A stretch of 41,069 nucleotides of DNA. It comes from a virus. Its lineage: Duplodnaviria; Heunggongvirae; Uroviricota; Caudoviricetes. A model generated the notes under the pieces. That model did not search any database and was not told the DNA's origin. It saw only the letters and a list, made by a program, of their open reading frames with translations. The translations under genes were made by a program, and so were the position numbers. The DNA is taken from the IMG/VR virus record IMGVR_UViG_2541047748_000013. The stretch is one strand, 5' to 3'. This document shows, piece after piece, positions 6,618 to 38,981 of the stretch (position 1 is the first letter of the stretch; every line of letters begins with the position of its first letter).

Positions 6618-6632
6618 TTACCTTTCAGGTAA
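6618..6632. promoter_or_regulatory. TTACC-N5-GGTAA dyad (putative phage repressor operator) upstream of the antirepressor island
   Basis: Perfect dyad TTACCTTTCAGGTAA; identical copy at 25793-25807. Confidence 0.5.
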
Positions 6633-7281: not shown

Positions 7282-7992
7282 ATGGCTAATGCTCAAACTG
7301 CCATCTTCAAATTTGAATCTGTTAACCCTATCCGTTCCATCATTATCGATGGCCAACCATGGTTTGTAGCCCAAGACGTTTGTAGTGCGCTGCGTATCCA
7401 AAACGTCACCCAAGCACTTGAAAAACTGGATGATGATGAAAGGTCTATGTTCAACATAGGGCATGAACATCGTGCAATTTTTGACAGCCGAGTAAAAGAG
7501 ATCAACATTATCTCCGAGTCAGGCCTCTACACACTGATCCTCCGCTGCCGCGACGCAGTGACACCAGGCACTATCCCCTACCGCTTTCGTAAATGGGTTA
7601 CAGGTGAGGTTCTTCCTCAGATCCGCCGCACCGGAAGCTACATTAAAAACTCGCTCCCGCAGGAAGAACGCATAAAGATGGTTGCCGACCAGGTAGCCAA
7701 CGCCACAGCATCAGCAGTAATGCAGGCGATGAAGATAGAGAACAAAACCTACAGCGCCCCGCTGAAGCCCGGCTACCGCAGTTTGATTCACTCGCCGTCG
7801 GGTGTTCTCGGCCTGACGGAGAACTCACTGCTGATGAATTTGCTGAACCAGTTACAGGAAGACGGGCATGACGTATCGGGCGCGGCGGCGGAGCTGACCA
7901 CCATGTTCTGCTACATCGTCGGTGTGAGCAAATGCCTGCGTGATATCCAGACCCACGCGGAGTACATCAACGACAAGGCAGGGTTCTTCTGA
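7282..7992 (+). CDS. ant: Antirepressor, Bro-N/KilA-N N-terminal domain with Ant-type C-terminal domain
   Basis: Bro-N-like N-terminus (FVAQDVCSAL...SGLYTLILRCRD); GGAG RBS 9 nt upstream of ATG at 7282. Confidence 0.8.
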   Translation: MANAQTAIFKFESVNPIRSIIIDGQPWFVAQDVCSALRIQNVTQALEKLDDDERSMFNIGHEHRAIFDSRVKEINIISESGLYTLILRCRDAVTPGTIPYRFRKWVTGEVLPQIRRTGSYIKNSLPQEERIKMVADQVANATASAVMQAMKIENKTYSAPLKPGYRSLIHSPSGVLGLTENSLLMNLLNQLQEDGHDVSGAAAELTTMFCYIVGVSKCLRDIQTHAEYINDKAGFF

Positions 7993-8077
7993 CGAGCGGC
8001 GGCACATGGATGTGCCTACAATTATCAATAATTGTTTACACTCGTTGCAGTTAAAAGCATTATACTCATGTTTAAAA

Positions 8078-9193: not shown

Positions 9194-9205
9194 GTGACAT
9201 GTCAC
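9194..9205. repeat. 12-bp perfect palindrome GTGACATGTCAC, copy 1 of 3; contains the TGA stop of the 9202-9498 gene
   Basis: Exact 12-mer also at 26777-26788 and 29042-29053, each next to a terminator hairpin. Confidence 0.6.
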
Positions 9206-9693: not shown

Positions 9694-12168
9694 TTATTGC
9701 GGAGTGACATCCTGAGGTCGCCACCAGTATGTCTGATTAAACTCTTTCTTCGAACGTTGCTCCATTTTACGCAAATAGCCTGGTGAAAAATACTCCTGCA
9801 TCTGGTTCAAGATCATATGATCGAGAGCCGCCTTTAAGTACCAGAGATTCGCACCTGGCATCAAACCTTTCCCCAGCTTCACCAGATCACCACCAGTCTG
9901 CTCACTCTTCCCTTCCACAGCATTTAACGGTATGCCCTGAGCAATCTTCACTACGTCATCAACCAGACCAGCTACCGGGCCAAGCATCGACGCCAGCGCG
10001 CCGCTTCCGTACCTAGTGTGATCTGACAATAAAAAGTCACCGTAAAGGCCAAGGCCACCACCTTTCAGTAGAGCACCAAGCCAGAATTTTGCGGCACCTT
10101 CTCCTGTCATCTCTCGAGGATTACGACCAGACGCAAGGTCGTTAAGTTGCTGCGACAAAGCGCCAAGAATGGTCGTACTGGCAATAAACGTCGCAATATA
10201 TGCCGCACGCCCACCAGCAGACGGCATACCCATAGCGCGTGACCAGTGACGCATAACAACCGAGATAGGGAACGATTTAAACAGGAAAACACTTCTCGTT
10301 AATTCACCTTTCCATGTTCCACGCTGAATACCAGAACCGGTTATCAGTTGCTCACGTGCTCCCGGTGTAATAACAGCCATATCAACTTCTTCAGTTACGG
10401 CACCGAGCAGTTTACGCATTGCCTCAAATTTCACTCGTTCAGGCTCACCAAGATGTTTAACTGCTGAATCAGGGATACGCATAATGCTTTCCGGTGTCAG
10501 CATCGTATTATTACCGTTCCCCCAGTCCTCCTGTTGCGCCAGCTTCCATACGCTCCAGTCTGTGTCAGTAATCCCTTTGCTTTTCAGGATACGAAAATCA
10601 GAGTCATCGAGGCTACGAAGGTCTGGTGTCCGTGACACTACTTCTCCCAGGCTTCCCATCATGGTTACGCCATAGGCGCGCTTGTGCGCATCTGACCATG
10701 CTGTAAGCCCACTGGCACGCATTACGGCCGTTGCCGCCCAACGAGACACTGACGGCCCCATATTATCCATCGCCCAGCGGTTAACGCTGCCAAGTAGAGA
10801 TTCCATCGCCAGACCAGCGCGGCGCGCCCGCGCAAGTTCTGTACGGTTCGTTGGGTCCATAGCTTCAAGCTGGTTGCGGAATAACTGGTTCATTGGAAGG
10901 TTGGTAACCTTCGCAGACAGATACATGGTTCCAAGATCAGAGAACGATGACAGCAACGCGGATCCGAGTCTGCTGGCAACCAGCCAGTTGCGGATATTGT
11001 CAGACCATCGCGCGATGTGCGGATTCGCTACAGGCTGTGTCTTTCCAGAAATAAAGTTGTACAGATTCTCTGTGTTGTTCGCCAGCCGCTCGACTTTACC
11101 GGTTTTACTCGGGTTAGCTGTTGCCGTTTCTGCCTTAACCTGATCAAGAAGGGAGCGGAAAACATGATCGGGGTTTGGGCCATATGTTTCCACCAGTGCA
11201 ATATCTTTACTGATACCTTCCAGGTGACCGACCATGATTTCCCATAGAGAGCGATCGCCATAAAGTTGCTGATATTGCAGATAGGAATCTGCATCTTTGA
11301 AATGTATCTGTCGTGATGCATTACCACGGTTAGCACGTGCGCCGGAAATTCGCATTCCGGTATCAGTAAGCTTATTCAGCCCACCAGTAGCGATCGTGTT
11401 ATAAGCCTCTCCAAGAAATGCAGACAACTCGGCATCGTTCATCAGTTGTCCATCGGCTCGGGTATAATATTTGCGATCCAGCTTACCTATAACATCGCTA
11501 ACCCATTTATCTTTTGATACCGCCCCAACCTTTTCCATAGAATGATGTTGAGGGATCCCCCAGTTTTCGAGATAGCCAATGTCCCCACCAGCATCATTAA
11601 ACCGGCGGCGGAGTAGATCTGTCACTTCTCTCCACGCCTTAGCACCTTTTCTTGCTTTAGCATTGCCAGTATTTTGCCCTCGCATTTCATATACCAGGTC
11701 ACGCACGCCCGCTTCATCTTCAAACAGGCCAAAAAAGCGAGGATCAACTGCTTCGAATGCCTCCTGCAATTGACTCAATGCATAATCACGAGTGGCTTTT
11801 GTTCTGGACTCAACAGAGAGGAAATTCGATTTACCGTCTGCATTAAAAGCAATAGTACGGTTAAGAGCGCCAAGTTTCCCATCAGCCCCTTGATAGCTAT
11901 TGATAAATTTATCCAATCTCTGACGTGCGGCTATAGTAAGAGCCACACGACGTTTCTTTAATGCCGCTTCTCGCTGTAATTCTTCAGATGCCAATTGTGC
12001 TGCACGATACAGCCGCTCTGACTCGGAAAGTTGTCGCCACGACATAGGGTCATCACGAGCAATGGAGCGCATATTGCGATAAATGCGGTCTTCAATGTTC
12101 TGTATTTCTCGCGCCGTTAACGTGCGCTGCGCCGCCTGCTGGACCGCTTGTATACATTCCTGTCTCAT
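9694..12168 (-). CDS. Internal virion / DNA-ejection protein (large)
   Basis: 824 aa, last of three large proteins following internal-virion-protein B-like gene, as in T7 gp15/gp16 block. Confidence 0.55.
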   Translation of the reverse strand: MRQECIQAVQQAAQRTLTAREIQNIEDRIYRNMRSIARDDPMSWRQLSESERLYRAAQLASEELQREAALKKRRVALTIAARQRLDKFINSYQGADGKLGALNRTIAFNADGKSNFLSVESRTKATRDYALSQLQEAFEAVDPRFFGLFEDEAGVRDLVYEMRGQNTGNAKARKGAKAWREVTDLLRRRFNDAGGDIGYLENWGIPQHHSMEKVGAVSKDKWVSDVIGKLDRKYYTRADGQLMNDAELSAFLGEAYNTIATGGLNKLTDTGMRISGARANRGNASRQIHFKDADSYLQYQQLYGDRSLWEIMVGHLEGISKDIALVETYGPNPDHVFRSLLDQVKAETATANPSKTGKVERLANNTENLYNFISGKTQPVANPHIARWSDNIRNWLVASRLGSALLSSFSDLGTMYLSAKVTNLPMNQLFRNQLEAMDPTNRTELARARRAGLAMESLLGSVNRWAMDNMGPSVSRWAATAVMRASGLTAWSDAHKRAYGVTMMGSLGEVVSRTPDLRSLDDSDFRILKSKGITDTDWSVWKLAQQEDWGNGNNTMLTPESIMRIPDSAVKHLGEPERVKFEAMRKLLGAVTEEVDMAVITPGAREQLITGSGIQRGTWKGELTRSVFLFKSFPISVVMRHWSRAMGMPSAGGRAAYIATFIASTTILGALSQQLNDLASGRNPREMTGEGAAKFWLGALLKGGGLGLYGDFLLSDHTRYGSGALASMLGPVAGLVDDVVKIAQGIPLNAVEGKSEQTGGDLVKLGKGLMPGANLWYLKAALDHMILNQMQEYFSPGYLRKMEQRSKKEFNQTYWWRPQDVTPQ

Positions 12169-23512: not shown

Positions 23513-23805
23513 TCCTGTTCACTGGCCTCTTTGGCCATCTTCAAATACTGTTCAGGGCAATGCGCCATAACGCGCTGAAACAGTTCCAGCGCCAGATTGC
23601 GTTGCCCCTCATTAAATGCCATTGCCATAGCGTCCATCGGTGAGATAGCGGAAAACACACGGCCTTTCTCCAGCACCGACCAGACAACGCGACGCCCCTG
23701 TTCACTGCTCATGACAAAGCGAATGTCATCAATTTCACGCTGTGCCATGTCACGTTGCTTACGGGCGTTTTCTTCTTTCAGTTGATCATCTTCGTAATCT
23801 GTCAT
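23509..23805 (-). CDS. Hypothetical head-assembly protein
   Basis: 98 aa, 4-nt overlaps with portal and scaffold genes. Confidence 0.5.
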   Translation of the reverse strand: MTDYEDDQLKEENARKQRDMAQREIDDIRFVMSSEQGRRVVWSVLEKGRVFSAISPMDAMAMAFNEGQRNLALELFQRVMAHCPEQYLKMAKEASEQE

Positions 23806-26776: not shown

Positions 26777-26788
26777 GTGACATGTCAC
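26777..26788. repeat. 12-bp palindrome GTGACATGTCAC, copy 2 of 3
   Basis: 4 nt after the Gp49-like stop, immediately followed by a terminator hairpin. Confidence 0.6.
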
Positions 26789-26791
26789 AAA

Positions 26792-26819
26792 CAGCCAGCC
26801 GATGAGCTGGCTTTGTTTT
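26792..26819 (+). terminator. Intrinsic terminator after the Gp49-like gene
   Basis: AGCCAGC cgatga GCTGGCT followed by TTGTTTT. Confidence 0.55.
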
Positions 26820-26862
26820 ATCCTCACCAGAGGATATCTCCGTCATTATCCCCGCTAACGGA

Positions 26863-28338
26863 TTAAGCATAGGGATCATAATCTGTAATGGCCTTGCCTT
26901 GCTGGTTCTGCTGCCCGGGAATTCGCAGACGCTTAGACACAGGGAACGCAAACGTCAGCAGTAGCGCATCGCCTTTACCCGGCGAACGCCCAAGCCGCTC
27001 CTTGATATCTTCCTTCGGTTCGATAACGATTTTACCGTCCACACGAACTTTGTACTCTGCCGCCGACAGGTCGTCTGCAGTTTCCTGGTCATCCAGCATG
27101 CCGCCGAGCCTCAGCCATGTCTTGCATGAGTTGAACATCTCCCCACGCTTGTTGAGCATCTGCGGGTCAGTAGACGCGCCACCGAACGGAACAAGTTGCC
27201 ATGTACGTCCCCAGCCATCACCGATTGACTTCAAACCGGTTCCGTAACCGAAGTCGATGAACACCGCGTCAGCCTGATACTGGTCTTCAAAGTCAGCGAT
27301 ACGCTTCGCCATAATCAGATCGTCGGTAGTCTTGTTGCCAGTCCACAGCACCTTACTGTGTAGCCCCTGCCGCAGGTATATCACCGCGTCATCAACGCCT
27401 GAATATGCCGGGTCAACACCGATTATCACCGGAGCATGTGCAACCTGCGCAGCGGTAACCACCCGCTTCATGGCCTCGTCTGTAAGGCCTGTTGGGATAA
27501 ACTGGAGTTCTGACGCGTCAGGGAAGATCCCCCGCACGCGGACCTTCACGAAGTCGCTGTCTTCGCCGTAGTCGTCAACCCATTTCTGCAGCTGCTGCTT
27601 GTTTGTGCCTTCCACGGTGCGGCTGTCAATCTGCGCGCACTTCCAGCGGTGCTTGTACTTGCGGAAGCATTCGCGGAAGCGCCCGGTGTTACGCGTCGGG
27701 TTCCCAAACGCCACCCAGATAATTTCCGTGTCTTCGTCCGTAAGCGCACCCTCAGCAACTTCCCACACCAGATCCGCAATGTTCGACGCTTCATCGAATA
27801 CCACGATGATGCGTTTGCGCTCGTTGTGTAGTCCGGCGAATGCCTCGGTGTTGTGCTCAGACCAGGGTATTGCGTCAGCCCGCCACCGCTTGTCGTGCCC
27901 TAGGTCATTGCTGTACATCGCGGTAGCGGTACAGGTAAACCAGTCTTTCGTGATAGCAAGGTTCGACCACTTGATAATTTCCGGCCAGGTCTTCGTTCGT
28001 AGCTGGTTGTCGGTGTTGGCGGTCACCACGACCTTACAATCCTCGCAAGTGGACATGCCCCAGTTGATCAGCATTGAGATGAATGCGGATTTACCAATAC
28101 CGTGACCAGAAGCGCGTGCCAGCATAAGCGGCTGATAGCGCGTCTCTGGATTCTGCAGGTGATCACGTATCTCTCGGAACGCATCAGCCTGCCACTGACG
28201 TGGGCCGGTGGCATGTGCCAGTTCAGTCCCCTCTTCCCCCCACGGGAACGCATAGAGGGCATAGCCAAGCGGATCGTGAGTGAACCCTGCAATATCCTCG
28301 ATTAACTGCTCTTCAGGAGATAACGCTGTATCTGTCAC
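26863..28338 (-). CDS. Terminase large subunit
   Basis: 491 aa; N-terminal ATPase-like region (GHGIGKSAF Walker A-like) and C-terminal nuclease-like region; overlaps small subunit stop. Confidence 0.85.
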   Translation of the reverse strand: MTDTALSPEEQLIEDIAGFTHDPLGYALYAFPWGEEGTELAHATGPRQWQADAFREIRDHLQNPETRYQPLMLARASGHGIGKSAFISMLINWGMSTCEDCKVVVTANTDNQLRTKTWPEIIKWSNLAITKDWFTCTATAMYSNDLGHDKRWRADAIPWSEHNTEAFAGLHNERKRIIVVFDEASNIADLVWEVAEGALTDEDTEIIWVAFGNPTRNTGRFRECFRKYKHRWKCAQIDSRTVEGTNKQQLQKWVDDYGEDSDFVKVRVRGIFPDASELQFIPTGLTDEAMKRVVTAAQVAHAPVIIGVDPAYSGVDDAVIYLRQGLHSKVLWTGNKTTDDLIMAKRIADFEDQYQADAVFIDFGYGTGLKSIGDGWGRTWQLVPFGGASTDPQMLNKRGEMFNSCKTWLRLGGMLDDQETADDLSAAEYKVRVDGKIVIEPKEDIKERLGRSPGKGDALLLTFAFPVSKRLRIPGQQNQQGKAITDYDPYA

Positions 28339-28931
28339 TGATTGCCATCCTGACGTTCTTTCAGTCTCTTCCTGGCTGCCGCTATGCGATCAGCAATTGT
28401 CACATTCACATTAACATCCAGGCGTTCTTTGAATGCGTTGACGTCGACGTGCTTACCAATCAGTTCGAGGTTCTTCACCTTGTCAGGCCATTTAATTTTT
28501 TTGAGGATTGTCTCTATCGAATCCTCGTTCATGTTCATGATGGTCGATGACAGATCAAAGCCACTAAGCGTAGTGCGCCAGATTTTCGGCCACTCGCGGA
28601 TTGGCTTAAGGCTCCCATCGTCGTTGAGGATGTCGATCACGTCCATCTGGTCGATCTCCACCAGGCGCATGAGAACGTAATCAGCACTGACGCGCATTCG
28701 TTTGTTGCGCTCCTCCATCAACTCGGCAATCCGTTTTTGAATGCGTTCATCGCGCATCATGACACTGGCTTTAACTGCCGCTGTATTTGGGGAGAATCCT
28801 GCGTTAATCGCTGCCTGAGTCTGGTTTTCAGGCGTTTTGATGTATGACTGGCAATAAGCCTCCTGCATTGCTGTTAGTGGCTTAAATTGCGTTGATTTGC
28901 GTTTATAGGCTTTAGGTTCAGCAGGCATCAT
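28335..28931 (-). CDS. Terminase small subunit
   Basis: About 198 aa from internal Met pair (MMPAEP); immediately upstream of large subunit; listed ORF start at 29009 judged too far upstream. Confidence 0.7.
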   Translation of the reverse strand: MMPAEPKAYKRKSTQFKPLTAMQEAYCQSYIKTPENQTQAAINAGFSPNTAAVKASVMMRDERIQKRIAELMEERNKRMRVSADYVLMRLVEIDQMDVIDILNDDGSLKPIREWPKIWRTTLSGFDLSSTIMNMNEDSIETILKKIKWPDKVKNLELIGKHVDVNAFKERLDVNVNVTIADRIAAARKRLKERQDGNQ

Positions 28932-28948
28932 AACCACCGTGGTAATAG

Positions 28949-28963
28949 TTACCGTTGTGGTAA
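28949..28963. promoter_or_regulatory. TTACC-N5-GGTAA dyad cluster just upstream of the terminase small subunit start
   Basis: TTACCGTTGTGGTAA flanked by GGTAATAGTTACC and GGTAATAGTACC. Confidence 0.45.
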
Positions 28964-28971
28964 TAGTACCA

Positions 28972-29000
28972 TGCAAAATAAAGCCGCCATAGTTGGCGGC
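28972..29000 (-). terminator. Intrinsic terminator (minus orientation) in front of the packaging/late operon
   Basis: Minus-strand hairpin GCCGCC aactat GGCGGC followed by TTTATTTTG. Confidence 0.5.
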
Positions 29001-29041
29001 AGTATTCAAACCCCATCAAATTCATCATGCATAATCTACTC

Positions 29042-29053
29042 GTGACATGTCAC
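29042..29053. repeat. 12-bp palindrome GTGACATGTCAC, copy 3 of 3; contains the TGA stop of the 29050-29391 gene
   Basis: Exact 12-mer; about 40 nt upstream (minus direction) of the terminator hairpin. Confidence 0.6.
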
Positions 29054-29391
29054 ACTATTAATTTCGTTTCATGCCAGCCTTTAGTCACCCAGCATTGCGA
29101 GTCACCATCACACGGGCATGAATTCACAGGAACTCTCTCGCCGCACTTACCGCAACGTTTTCTGCTGATCGATTTTATACGCCCGTGCACGCGTGCATCA
29201 TCCTGGCGGATCAGTAACGCTATATACTCACCAAATTCGTAAGGCGCACGCCCGGGGCGACGCGTGGCACAGTTACGCTCCAGCATTTCAATTTCCTGAG
29301 CATCAAGCACAATTTCCAGCTTACGCACACCAGATGCAGCTTGTCTGGCTCTCTGAGCGGCTTTGCGCTCTGCTGCTGATTTAGCCATCAA
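29050..29391 (-). CDS. Zn-ribbon protein (C-terminal CxxC...CPC), candidate late-gene regulator
   Basis: 113 aa; basic Ala/Arg-rich N-terminus and Cys4 cluster CGKCG...CPCDG; last gene before late terminator and terminase. Confidence 0.5.
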   Translation of the reverse strand: MMAKSAAERKAAQRARQAASGVRKLEIVLDAQEIEMLERNCATRRPGRAPYEFGEYIALLIRQDDARVHGRIKSISRKRCGKCGERVPVNSCPCDGDSQCWVTKGWHETKLIV

Positions 29392-31689: not shown

Positions 31690-31704
31690 TTACCTCTGAG
31701 GTAA
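31690..31704. promoter_or_regulatory. TTACC-N5-GGTAA dyad overlapping the Shine-Dalgarno of the DUF1064-like gene
   Basis: TTACCTCTGAGGTAA 4 nt from the start codon; the GAGG of the right arm is the only RBS-like element. Confidence 0.5.
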
Positions 31705-31751: not shown

Positions 31752-31766
31752 TTACCTAACAGGTAA
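31752..31766. promoter_or_regulatory. TTACC-N5-GGTAA dyad between replication and nin-like genes
   Basis: TTACCTAACAGGTAA. Confidence 0.45.
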
Positions 31767-33990: not shown

Positions 33991-34053
33991 TCACCCATAA
34001 GGTAACAAAAATCAAGGATAGTTACCTATGGGGTGCATTTACCTGTTGGGTAA
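33991..34053. promoter_or_regulatory. Tripartite operator in the divergent repressor/cro promoter region
   Basis: Three dyads: TCACCCATAAGGTAA (33991-34005), TTACCTATGGGGTGC (34022-34036), TTACCTGTTGGGTAA (34039-34053). Confidence 0.55.
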
Positions 34054-34108: not shown

Positions 34109-34693
34109 ATGAAAAGTATCCAGGACGTCCGCAGGCAAAATCTCAACGACTTGATCGACCGTGAATTCAATGGTGTTCAGACGCGGATGGCTGAAAAACT
34201 TGGAACTCAGGCAAATCTGGTAAACCGCTGGGCTCTTGGCAAGAAGGTTATCGGCGACCAGGTTGCACGAAAAATTGAAGCTGCCGCCAATAAACCCCGT
34301 AACTGGCTTGATATTGATCGCTCGCTTTCTCAGGAGGGTTTTCAGCCTGTCGGCCCGAGCGATATAGGTCAGCTGGCGGCTCACAACCTGGAACGCTGGA
34401 TGAGCGAAAGCCGCGACCTTTCAACGCAGGGAAAACTACACCGCGCATCCGGCGTCGCCCAGGTGACAATCAGCCGCCTGTTAAACAATGAGGTCAGCGT
34501 TTCCATTTCCACCCTGGAGAATGTTGCATCCGCATTCGGGCGTCACGGCTATGAATTACTGATTCACCCGCACGACCCTGCGACCATCAACTATGATCGC
34601 TCGCGCTACGCATTGTTACCCGAAACCGAGAAAGCAAAGATCGAAAGTTACATTGAATTTGTCATCAACCAGAACGAAAAAAACAAACAATAA
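34109..34693 (+). CDS. CI-type repressor with tandem HTH domains and no S24 peptidase domain
   Basis: 194 aa; two XRE-like HTH segments; no Ala-Gly/Ser-Lys autocleavage domain visible; short leader. Confidence 0.6.
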   Translation: MKSIQDVRRQNLNDLIDREFNGVQTRMAEKLGTQANLVNRWALGKKVIGDQVARKIEAAANKPRNWLDIDRSLSQEGFQPVGPSDIGQLAAHNLERWMSESRDLSTQGKLHRASGVAQVTISRLLNNEVSVSISTLENVASAFGRHGYELLIHPHDPATINYDRSRYALLPETEKAKIESYIEFVINQNEKNKQ

Positions 34694-34750: not shown

Positions 34751-34765
34751 TTACCTAACGGGTAA
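34751..34765. promoter_or_regulatory. TTACC-N5-GGTAA dyad upstream of early-left promoter
   Basis: TTACCTAACGGGTAA. Confidence 0.5.
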
Positions 34766-38681: not shown

Positions 38682-38981
38682 GTGAGAAAGTTAAGCCGAC
38701 TTGAAAAATATCACATGAACAAGGTTTCAATGCGCAGCCCTTCAAAGGTTGTTGCCGTTACTCCTGCGGCGATAGAGATCGAAAAACGCGCGATTGAAAG
38801 AGAGAAAAAAGGGCAATTCCGCATTGCCGCTCACCTTTGGCTTCAGTGTATGGATGTTGCTTCTGGTGATGTTGAACGTGCAAGGATCGCGGTTCGCAGG
38901 GACCAATGTATCACAAAAGGTAACGGCCTTCGCCGTGGCGACTATAGCGGCATAGGATGTTGTGGGGTGGTTTATGACTAA
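38682..38981 (+). CDS. Possible PerC/ANR-family regulator
   Basis: 99 aa; Trp/Arg pattern (RIAAHLWLQCMDV...ARIAVRRDQC) loosely resembles PerC; GTG start assumed. Confidence 0.4.
   Translation: MRKLSRLEKYHMNKVSMRSPSKVVAVTPAAIEIEKRAIEREKKGQFRIAAHLWLQCMDVASGDVERARIAVRRDQCITKGNGLRRGDYSGIGCCGVVYD

Follow-up and report, generated by a model that had tools for sequence, protein, structure and literature searches.

The question raised by this locus is how transcription of the late genes starts directly upstream of terS, the gene for the small terminase subunit, in the tailed-phage genome of IMG/VR virus record IMGVR_UViG_2541047748_000013 (41,069 nucleotides (nt), analysed over its whole length and henceforth called the window). 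From the letters alone, the original prediction had described a candidate late-operon control unit without a recognisable Q, made up of a small Zn-ribbon protein gene (here ZR), a palindrome, a minus-strand intrinsic terminator, and a cluster of TTACC-N5-GGTAA dyads, and had likened it to lambda PR'-tR' antitermination, with the small protein as a possible antiterminator or activator. All four features proved real, at or within a few bases of the positions then given, and the copy numbers of palindrome and dyad are non-random. The account favoured here, to which we give a probability of roughly 0.6, divides the locus into an operon-end terminator, a late promoter that would be controlled by the prophage repressor, and a separate, conserved module of ZR and its putative site. 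Q-type antitermination is not needed at this locus, which is mostly explained by elements of which two, the terminator and the terS operator, were already annotated in the type phage epsilon15; there is no need for a hidden Q.

Phage identity and gene order

A stretch of 901 bases around the locus matched Escherichia phage vB_EcoP_PAS61 over its full length with 98% identity, and the same bases also matched phiV10, the O157 typing phages 9 and 10, and TL-2011b. All of these are Uetakeviruses, i.e., epsilon15-like temperate podoviruses, and the window is assigned to the same epsilon15/phiV10-like group. Along the minus strand, in order of transcription, a lambda-P-like replication gene is followed by DUF1064, Ead/Ea22-like genes, DUF4752, an ASCH gene, ZR, terS, and terL. 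At this locus the early-right operon gives way to the first late (packaging) gene, and its earlier description as a control point in front of terS holds in this respect. Between the two operons the elements stand in the order ZR, palindrome S1, terminator, extended -10 element with operators, and terS (Table 1).

Table 1. Positions of the features discussed, in coordinates of the window
Feature	Position	Strand	Basis
ZR gene, last of the early-right operon	29050..29388	-	homologue of epsilon15 gp49, phiV10 p55, N15 gp46
Palindrome S1, GTGACATGTCAC, overlaps ZR stop codon; proposed ZR binding site	29042..29053	.	
Predicted intrinsic terminator, end of early-right operon, GCCGCC-AACTAT-GGCGGC-TTTATTTTG	28972..29000	-	scan; fold
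Predicted extended -10 element TGgTACTAT (P_terS), abuts O1	28963..28971	-	conservation
Operator O1, TTACCACAACGGTAA, exact TTACC-N5-GGTAA	28949..28963	.	
Operator O2, TTACCACGGTGGTTA, one mismatch; contains terS Shine-Dalgarno, touches start codon	28931..28945	.	
terS, small terminase subunit, first late gene	28335..28931	-	Pfam Terminase_2 1e-29; PHROG 51
Palindrome S2, between terL end and convergent cargo gene	26777..26788	.	
Terminator beside S2	26793-26820	+	
Palindrome S3, overlaps stop codon of last gene of long structural operon	9194..9205	.	
Terminator beside S3	9192-9165	-	
Prophage repressor gene, two helix-turn-helix motifs, presumed binder of operators	34109..34693	+	Pfam HTH_3; phiV10/epsilon15 annotation

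Terminator, putative promoter, and operators upstream of terS

The minus-strand terminator of the original prediction was recovered as a predicted intrinsic terminator, with a GC-rich hairpin (-13.8 kcal/mol) and a T run at the end of a transcription unit, and phiV10 and epsilon15 both carry a terminator annotation at the corresponding position. Conservation was assessed on 21 distinct versions of the stretch upstream of terS, obtained from 80 IMG/VR loci, epsilon15, and Tyrion, and the terminator stem was invariant among them. Between the T run and O1 lies the candidate promoter element P_terS, whose pattern TG-n-TA-nn-AT was kept in 21/21 variants; the changes fell on the n of TGn, on hexamer positions 3-4, and on the operator centres. 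Within the window, an extended -10 fused to an operator is a unique match. In the same variants the half-sites of O1 and O2 were invariant and their centres variable. By position, O1 would span about -8 to +7 of P_terS, and O2 covers the ribosome-binding site of terS. Another candidate promoter, with the palindrome as its -35 (GTGACA-18-CATGAT, 9/12), was the sole match upstream of the terminator; it is weak and was rejected, its -10 not being kept in epsilon15-type or insertion-bearing relatives.

The dyad TTACC-N5-GGTAA is present in ten exact copies in the window against 0.03 expected, with four more copies carrying one or two mismatches. Copies at 33991, 34022, and 34039 are located between the repressor and cro-like genes, those at 34751 and 34813 flank a PL-like promoter, and further ones precede DUF1064, the gp3/portal block, the tailspike gene, and the antirepressor region. 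In the GenBank record of epsilon15, the same motif is entered as a "repressor" binding site at 12-27, before terS, and other such sites are listed ahead of the gp3/portal, tailspike, and resolvase genes, with three more in OL. The dyads before terS are, judged by their motif, members of a genome-wide prophage operator set that is already annotated in epsilon15, and the occurrence of one dyad both in the divergent repressor/cro region and before terS agrees, by motif position, with a CI-type set. The original prediction had counted them as part of the control unit and had bounded the cluster at 28941-28970; the cluster is present, its limits extend to the terS start codon at 28931, and a reading of the dyads as a local Q-site analogue does not hold. 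Relatives whose repressors are only 42% and 59% identical keep TTACC-N5-GGTAA, and covariation of repressor and operator is thus non-discriminating.

In the mechanism that these elements suggest, ZR, the last early gene, ends inside the 12-bp palindrome, and the intrinsic terminator would then end the early transcript. A separate sigma-70 promoter with the extended -10 TGgTACTAT would lie downstream of the terminator, and the two prophage operators would overlap its -10 and start region as well as the ribosome-binding site of terS. The packaging genes would be switched by direct repression and de-repression at a promoter of their own, with the same operator heading other gene blocks. On the sequence evidence, then, late packaging transcription most likely begins at this promoter and would be shut off directly by the repressor. 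Dispersed repressor operators are a feature of P1 C1 and, as "stoperators", of mycobacteriophage L5; the window resembles these systems and epsilon15 in having one repressor motif ahead of many units, including late ones, and so in what would be direct lysogenic silencing. It differs from P1 and L5 in that the sites number only about 10-14, every one of them heading a unit, and in that the repressor is the presumed rather than the established binder.

Mosaic joints among the related loci separate the two halves of the locus: terminator, promoter element, and operators move with terS, and the palindrome moves with ZR. In about 22 related loci, ZR and the terminator are separated by an extra small gene, joined at ...GATGAATTTGATGG.

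Operators elsewhere in the window show comparable arrangements. Between the P-like gene and DUF1064, a gene end is followed by two operators (31690-31704 and 31752-31766) and the next gene; the downstream operator holds the DUF1064 Shine-Dalgarno, as O2 does for terS, and phiV10 has an annotated terminator at the equivalent place. At the operators at 6618 (tailspike) and 25793 (gp3/portal), the right half runs into a -10-like TAATAT or TAATAA, with no good -35, and TTTTGCA precedes both the tailspike operator and the terS promoter element.

The ZR protein and its family

The open reading frame at 29050-29391 on the minus strand stands as first reported; its likely start, however, is the ATG at 29388, which overlaps the stop codon of the upstream ASCH gene, and with the TGA stop at 29052-29050 the product has 112 rather than 113 amino acids (aa). 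It contains five cysteines (C-x2-C, C-x-C, C). In an alignment of 57 family members, C79 and C82 were invariant and C99 nearly so; the alignment further displayed a basic N-terminal RKxxQRxR motif, a strand-helix-helix pattern, a PY..EY..LIR motif, and the C-x2-C with two more cysteines. ZR matched PHROG 536, labelled "transcriptional regulator", at E=2.7e-54; no Pfam family and no PDB relative were found for it by sequence. Close relatives of ZR in enterobacterial prophages number 721; with homologues as distant as about 30% identity, 151 cluster representatives were obtained.

The AlphaFold model of ZR is confident (mean predicted local distance difference test score 92.7), and a Foldseek search of the model against the PDB gave nothing significant. 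With a basic N-terminal helix, a core like that of the ribbon-helix-helix (RHH) type, and a C-terminal cysteine cluster, the model resembles RHH DNA binders, this being a fold-class resemblance at low Z. From the model we propose that ZR is an RHH-type DNA-binding protein with a putative zinc-binding tail; that it is a nucleic-acid-binding regulator is plausible. The family profile of residues 48-109 gave marginal matches in the PDB to the zinc-finger proteins TraR (E=0.034) and YbiI (E=0.045). The second CxxC of the CxxC-N17-21-CxxC finger is not kept in the ZR family, and no member matches the DksA/TraR Pfam model. ZR resembles Ogr/Delta and DksA/TraR as a small, phage- or plasmid-encoded, cysteine-containing protein that may act on transcription, as those proteins do. 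It differs from them in giving no Ogr_Delta (PF04606) match in the Pfam scan, in a TraR match below significance with one cysteine position different and no acidic tip, and in an RHH-like DNA-binding core that those proteins lack.

ZR carries no signature of the Q families (Q-lambda, Q82, Q21) by sequence, and its model has no likeness to any Q structure; the structure prediction and remote-homology comparison proposed with the original prediction thus gave no sign of a Q or an Ogr. Among the window proteins scanned, no Q, Ogr, or sigma-like protein was recognisable, as had been observed at the outset. The distribution of the family points in the same direction. In phage N15, the homologue (gene 46) coexists with a true Q (gp40, Pfam 1e-110), and in phage ZF40 the homologue gp22 is accompanied by an annotated Q-like gp25. 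In the P2-like Yersinia phage vB_YenM_56.17, which has a true Ogr (gp54, 4e-21), the homologue comes after replication gene A. In phage Chlobot, the homologue lies within a leftward recombination/xis/int operon, far from any terminase gene. Since N15 has a true Q and the Yersinia phage a true Ogr beside their homologues, the ZR family is not a general Q or Ogr substitute. For the Chlobot homologue (PP925838, 3861-4339), tblastn gave 86% identity over 112 aa; the record splits it into two coding sequences, a "UmuD-like protein" and a "transcriptional regulator", which is probably a mis-annotation or a frameshift.

Two traits recall the lambda Q and PR'-qut-tR' arrangement: a small regulator as the last early gene before the late genes, and an intrinsic terminator between early and late regions. 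The order, however, is reversed here, with the terminator placed before the dyads and the only conserved promoter-like element and not after them. ZR has neither a Q-family signature nor a Q-like fold, and the dyads are repressor operators and not a Q-binding element. Because of the order of the elements, the genome-wide occurrence of the dyads, and the distribution of the ZR family, the lambda-like geometry claimed for this locus does not fit.

A palindrome linked to ZR

The 12-bp palindrome reported at 29042-29053 is present, and the exact sequence GTGACATGTCAC was found in three copies in the window (9194, 26777, 29042) against 0.01 expected from shuffled sequences. Three syntenic copies are also present in epsilon15 and Tyrion. 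An exact GTGAC-NN-GTCAC site was located within -12..+40 of the ZR stop codon at 188/196 loci of three lineages (Uetakevirus-type, 84/89; N15-type, 51/51; Yersinia-type, 53/56), usually at offset -4, where the TGA of the palindrome is the stop codon itself. The site also stands at or just after the stop codon of distant homologues, i.e., in N15 (GTGACTGGTCAC, 36% identity) and the Yersinia phage (GTGACGCGTCAC, 42%), as well as in ZF40, Chlobot, and Vibrio phage PE002A (GTGACAGGTCAC). Base composition predicts about 0.04 sites per genome, and two or three exact copies were counted in each of epsilon15, Tyrion, N15, ZF40, and Vibrio phages (three each in N15 and ZF40; two or three in Vibrio K308-type phages). 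In the K308-type phages, the central bases differ within one genome, and one of the sites is found 19 nt ahead of the start of terS.

ZR is the only gene common to the neighbourhoods of the site in Uetakeviruses, N15, ZF40, Chlobot, the P2-like Yersinia phage, and the Vibrio phages, so that gene and site form a unit. GTGAC-NN-GTCAC is therefore most likely the cognate binding site of ZR, gene and site being co-inherited across many phage lineages. The pairing of this family with a 12-bp palindrome of its own is new here and seems undescribed; a search of full-text literature for the exact string of the palindrome returned no paper. A family labelled so far only "transcriptional regulator" or "hypothetical" is thereby linked to a specific palindrome in podo-, myo-, P2-like, and telomere phages of Escherichia, Salmonella, Klebsiella, Yersinia, Pectobacterium, Vibrio, and Aeromonas, and the pairing offers a directly testable target.

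Further copies and variants were noted. In N15, two more copies are situated at 28550 and 33237; one separates gene 33 from the antirepressor operon, and the other falls within repA. Aeromonas phage 14AhydR10PP carries the asymmetric variant GTGACCGGACAC twice, at 141 and 2922, each followed by GA(A/G)(A/G)GGTTAAAT and an ATG; the two copies stand in front of ribosome-binding sites, one ahead of the ZR homologue itself and one ahead of another small gene. The palindrome directly abuts a Shine-Dalgarno sequence in N15, Chlobot, and L013-type loci. One-mismatch copies, GTGCCATGTCAC and GTGACCAGTGAC, were found in the window at 23742-23753 and 10239-10250, within coding regions of structural genes. 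The record of Tyrion (KX231829) is cut at the centre of S1 (...GTGTGACA and TGTCACG... on either side), which suggested the palindrome as a packaging end. This was rejected because the Tyrion paper reports a circularly permuted genome with an arbitrary record start.

Palindromes beside terminators

All three palindromes of the window (3/3) have an intrinsic terminator at most 42 nt downstream, in the direction of the gene that ends there, the background chance of such adjacency being 0.029 per site. The gap between palindrome and terminator is 1 nt at S3, 4 nt at S2, and 41 nt at S1 (23 nt in epsilon15), and the syntenic copies of S3 (19517 in epsilon15, 20377 in Tyrion) are each followed by a terminator as well. 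As a general rule for the family, terminator adjacency was rejected: it applies to Uetakeviruses only. S2 and S3 are located at convergent gene junctions adjoined by variable cargo genes, which speaks against antitermination at these two sites and fits an insulating role.

Because the likely ZR site sits just upstream of three terminators in this genus, ZR may have a role in the control of termination, in either direction. With its sites at three operon ends, before terminators and beside swappable cargo, it could be a boundary factor that limits or shapes read-through, and such a boundary or insulator function is what we favour and infer for it. Taken further, ZR and GTGAC-NN-GTCAC might constitute an undescribed and widely shared phage gene-plus-site system, in which an RHH/zinc protein on a matS-like palindrome at operon ends would control the polymerase at the adjacent terminator, either as an insulator or as a site-loaded antiterminator. 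We regard this extended proposal as speculative and rather unlikely as it stands; if true, it would be a new way for temperate phages to keep early, late, and cargo transcription apart without a Q.

Alternative roles for ZR

ZR might instead be a positive late regulator, which, bound to the palindrome, would be handed to the polymerase coming from the early operon and cause read-through into terS, or which would activate P_terS. As the last early gene directly before the late genes, ZR is placed as Q is in lambda; its site precedes the terminator by 23-41 nt in epsilon15 and the window, and in Vibrio phages a site precedes the start of terS by 19 nt. P_terS and the other late promoters have no good -35, so that an activator may be needed, and the marginal profile match of residues 48-109 (E=0.03-0.045) is to polymerase-binding Zn-finger proteins. 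This match, however, is without the fourth cysteine position and the acidic N-terminus of TraR, no family member is recognised by the DksA/TraR Pfam model, and no Q structure resembles ZR. Read-through at the convergent S2 and S3 would moreover produce antisense RNA to terL or to cargo genes, homologues coexist with true Q and true Ogr proteins, one homologue is part of a leftward xis/int operon, and the distance from site to promoter or terminator ranges from 23 to about 430 nt, one relative having no terminator at all. A positive late regulator is thus judged distinctly improbable.

A second possibility is that ZR organises DNA in the manner of MatP/matS or ParB and does not act on transcription: it would bridge the two or three sites per genome or mark the DNA for replication, packaging, or defence evasion, operon ends merely tolerating the sites. 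The E. coli matS is GTGAC[AG]N[TC]GTCAC (PMC3603311, PMC3116907). The two systems are alike in an RHH-type protein (at the level of the fold only), in identical GTGAC/GTCAC half-sites, and in a small number of dispersed palindromes. The centre of the palindrome, however, has 2 bp here and 3 bp in matS, ZR has a cysteine cluster where MatP has a four-helix bundle and a coiled coil, and ZR is phage-borne, with a gene that carries its own site. No 13-bp matS (GTGACRNYGTCAC) was found in the window, even with one mismatch allowed. Homology of ZR to MatP was considered and dropped, the alignment of the ZR family with E. coli MatP by hhalign being not significant (probability 0.8%), and MatP is retained as an analogy only. 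No oligomerisation domain was identified in ZR, and the terminator adjacency at 3/3 sites, together with syntenic copies in epsilon15 and Tyrion, is hard to explain by tolerance alone. An organiser of this kind is considered rather unlikely. The half-sites shared with host matS raise the question of an interplay with the organisation of the host chromosome.

The palindrome could, finally, be unrelated to ZR and be next to the gene by chance, as a recombination joint between phage modules or as a small RNA hairpin. Mosaic breakpoints do coincide exactly with the palindrome at S1 and S2, and in several lineages it directly precedes the ribosome-binding site of the next gene. As RNA, however, it folds at only -2.9 kcal/mol, ZR is the sole gene that the neighbourhoods of the site share, and the variation of the central two bases between fixed half-sites, seen even inside a single Vibrio phage, is what one would expect at a site for a dimeric DNA-binding protein. 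A chance association is accordingly considered very improbable.

Weighing of the favoured account

Several observations weigh against the favoured account of an operon-end terminator, a repressor-controlled late promoter, and a separate ZR module. P_terS has no recognisable -35, and the compared relatives are close, so that its conservation is modest evidence. The identification of the repressor as the protein that would bind the operators rests on position and on the GenBank annotation. One relative with an inserted gene (L063) has no terminator before terS. Palindrome and terminator are not adjacent in N15, ZF40, the Yersinia phage, and Vibrio K308, the spacing of S1 and the terminator ranges between 23 and about 430 nt (300-430 nt in loci with an inserted gene), and S2 is altered by point changes or absent in about 30% of related prophages. 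A switch by the repressor alone, furthermore, gives no obvious delay between early and late transcription, and the system may still require an activator, which could be the product of the PerC-like gene at 38682-38981 or ZR itself. The former, a "transcriptional activator" on the plus strand in the leftward operon, matches PHROG 868 (E=6.5e-62) and Pfam PerC (6e-07) and is a homologue of epsilon15 gp31. Nothing on late control was found in the ZX5 and phiV10 reporter-phage papers. The pairing of ZR with its palindrome offers a handle on how Q-less epsilon15-like phages time their late genes and insulate their cargo genes.

Variation at the cargo junctions

S2 was exact in 50/72 related loci, at least 7 more had one mismatch, and others carried different cargo and no site. 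It is a mosaic joint, where at least 7 unrelated cargo genes on the reverse strand have their ends 2-6 nt away from the palindrome (window, 26777-26820; related loci L005-L084). One-base variants of S2 in some prophages read GTGATATGTCAC and GTGACATGCCAC. The hairpin beside S2 shows compensatory changes in its stem, AGCCAGC/GCTGGCT versus AGCCCGC/GCGGGCT. At the other junction, relatives L063 (7532-8001), L065, and L066 (both 7587-8001) carry a moron between the ZR palindrome and terS, with a promoter-like element of its own and a LexA box close to the consensus, TACTGTTTAAATGTACAGTA or TACTGTGTATTTATACAGTA.

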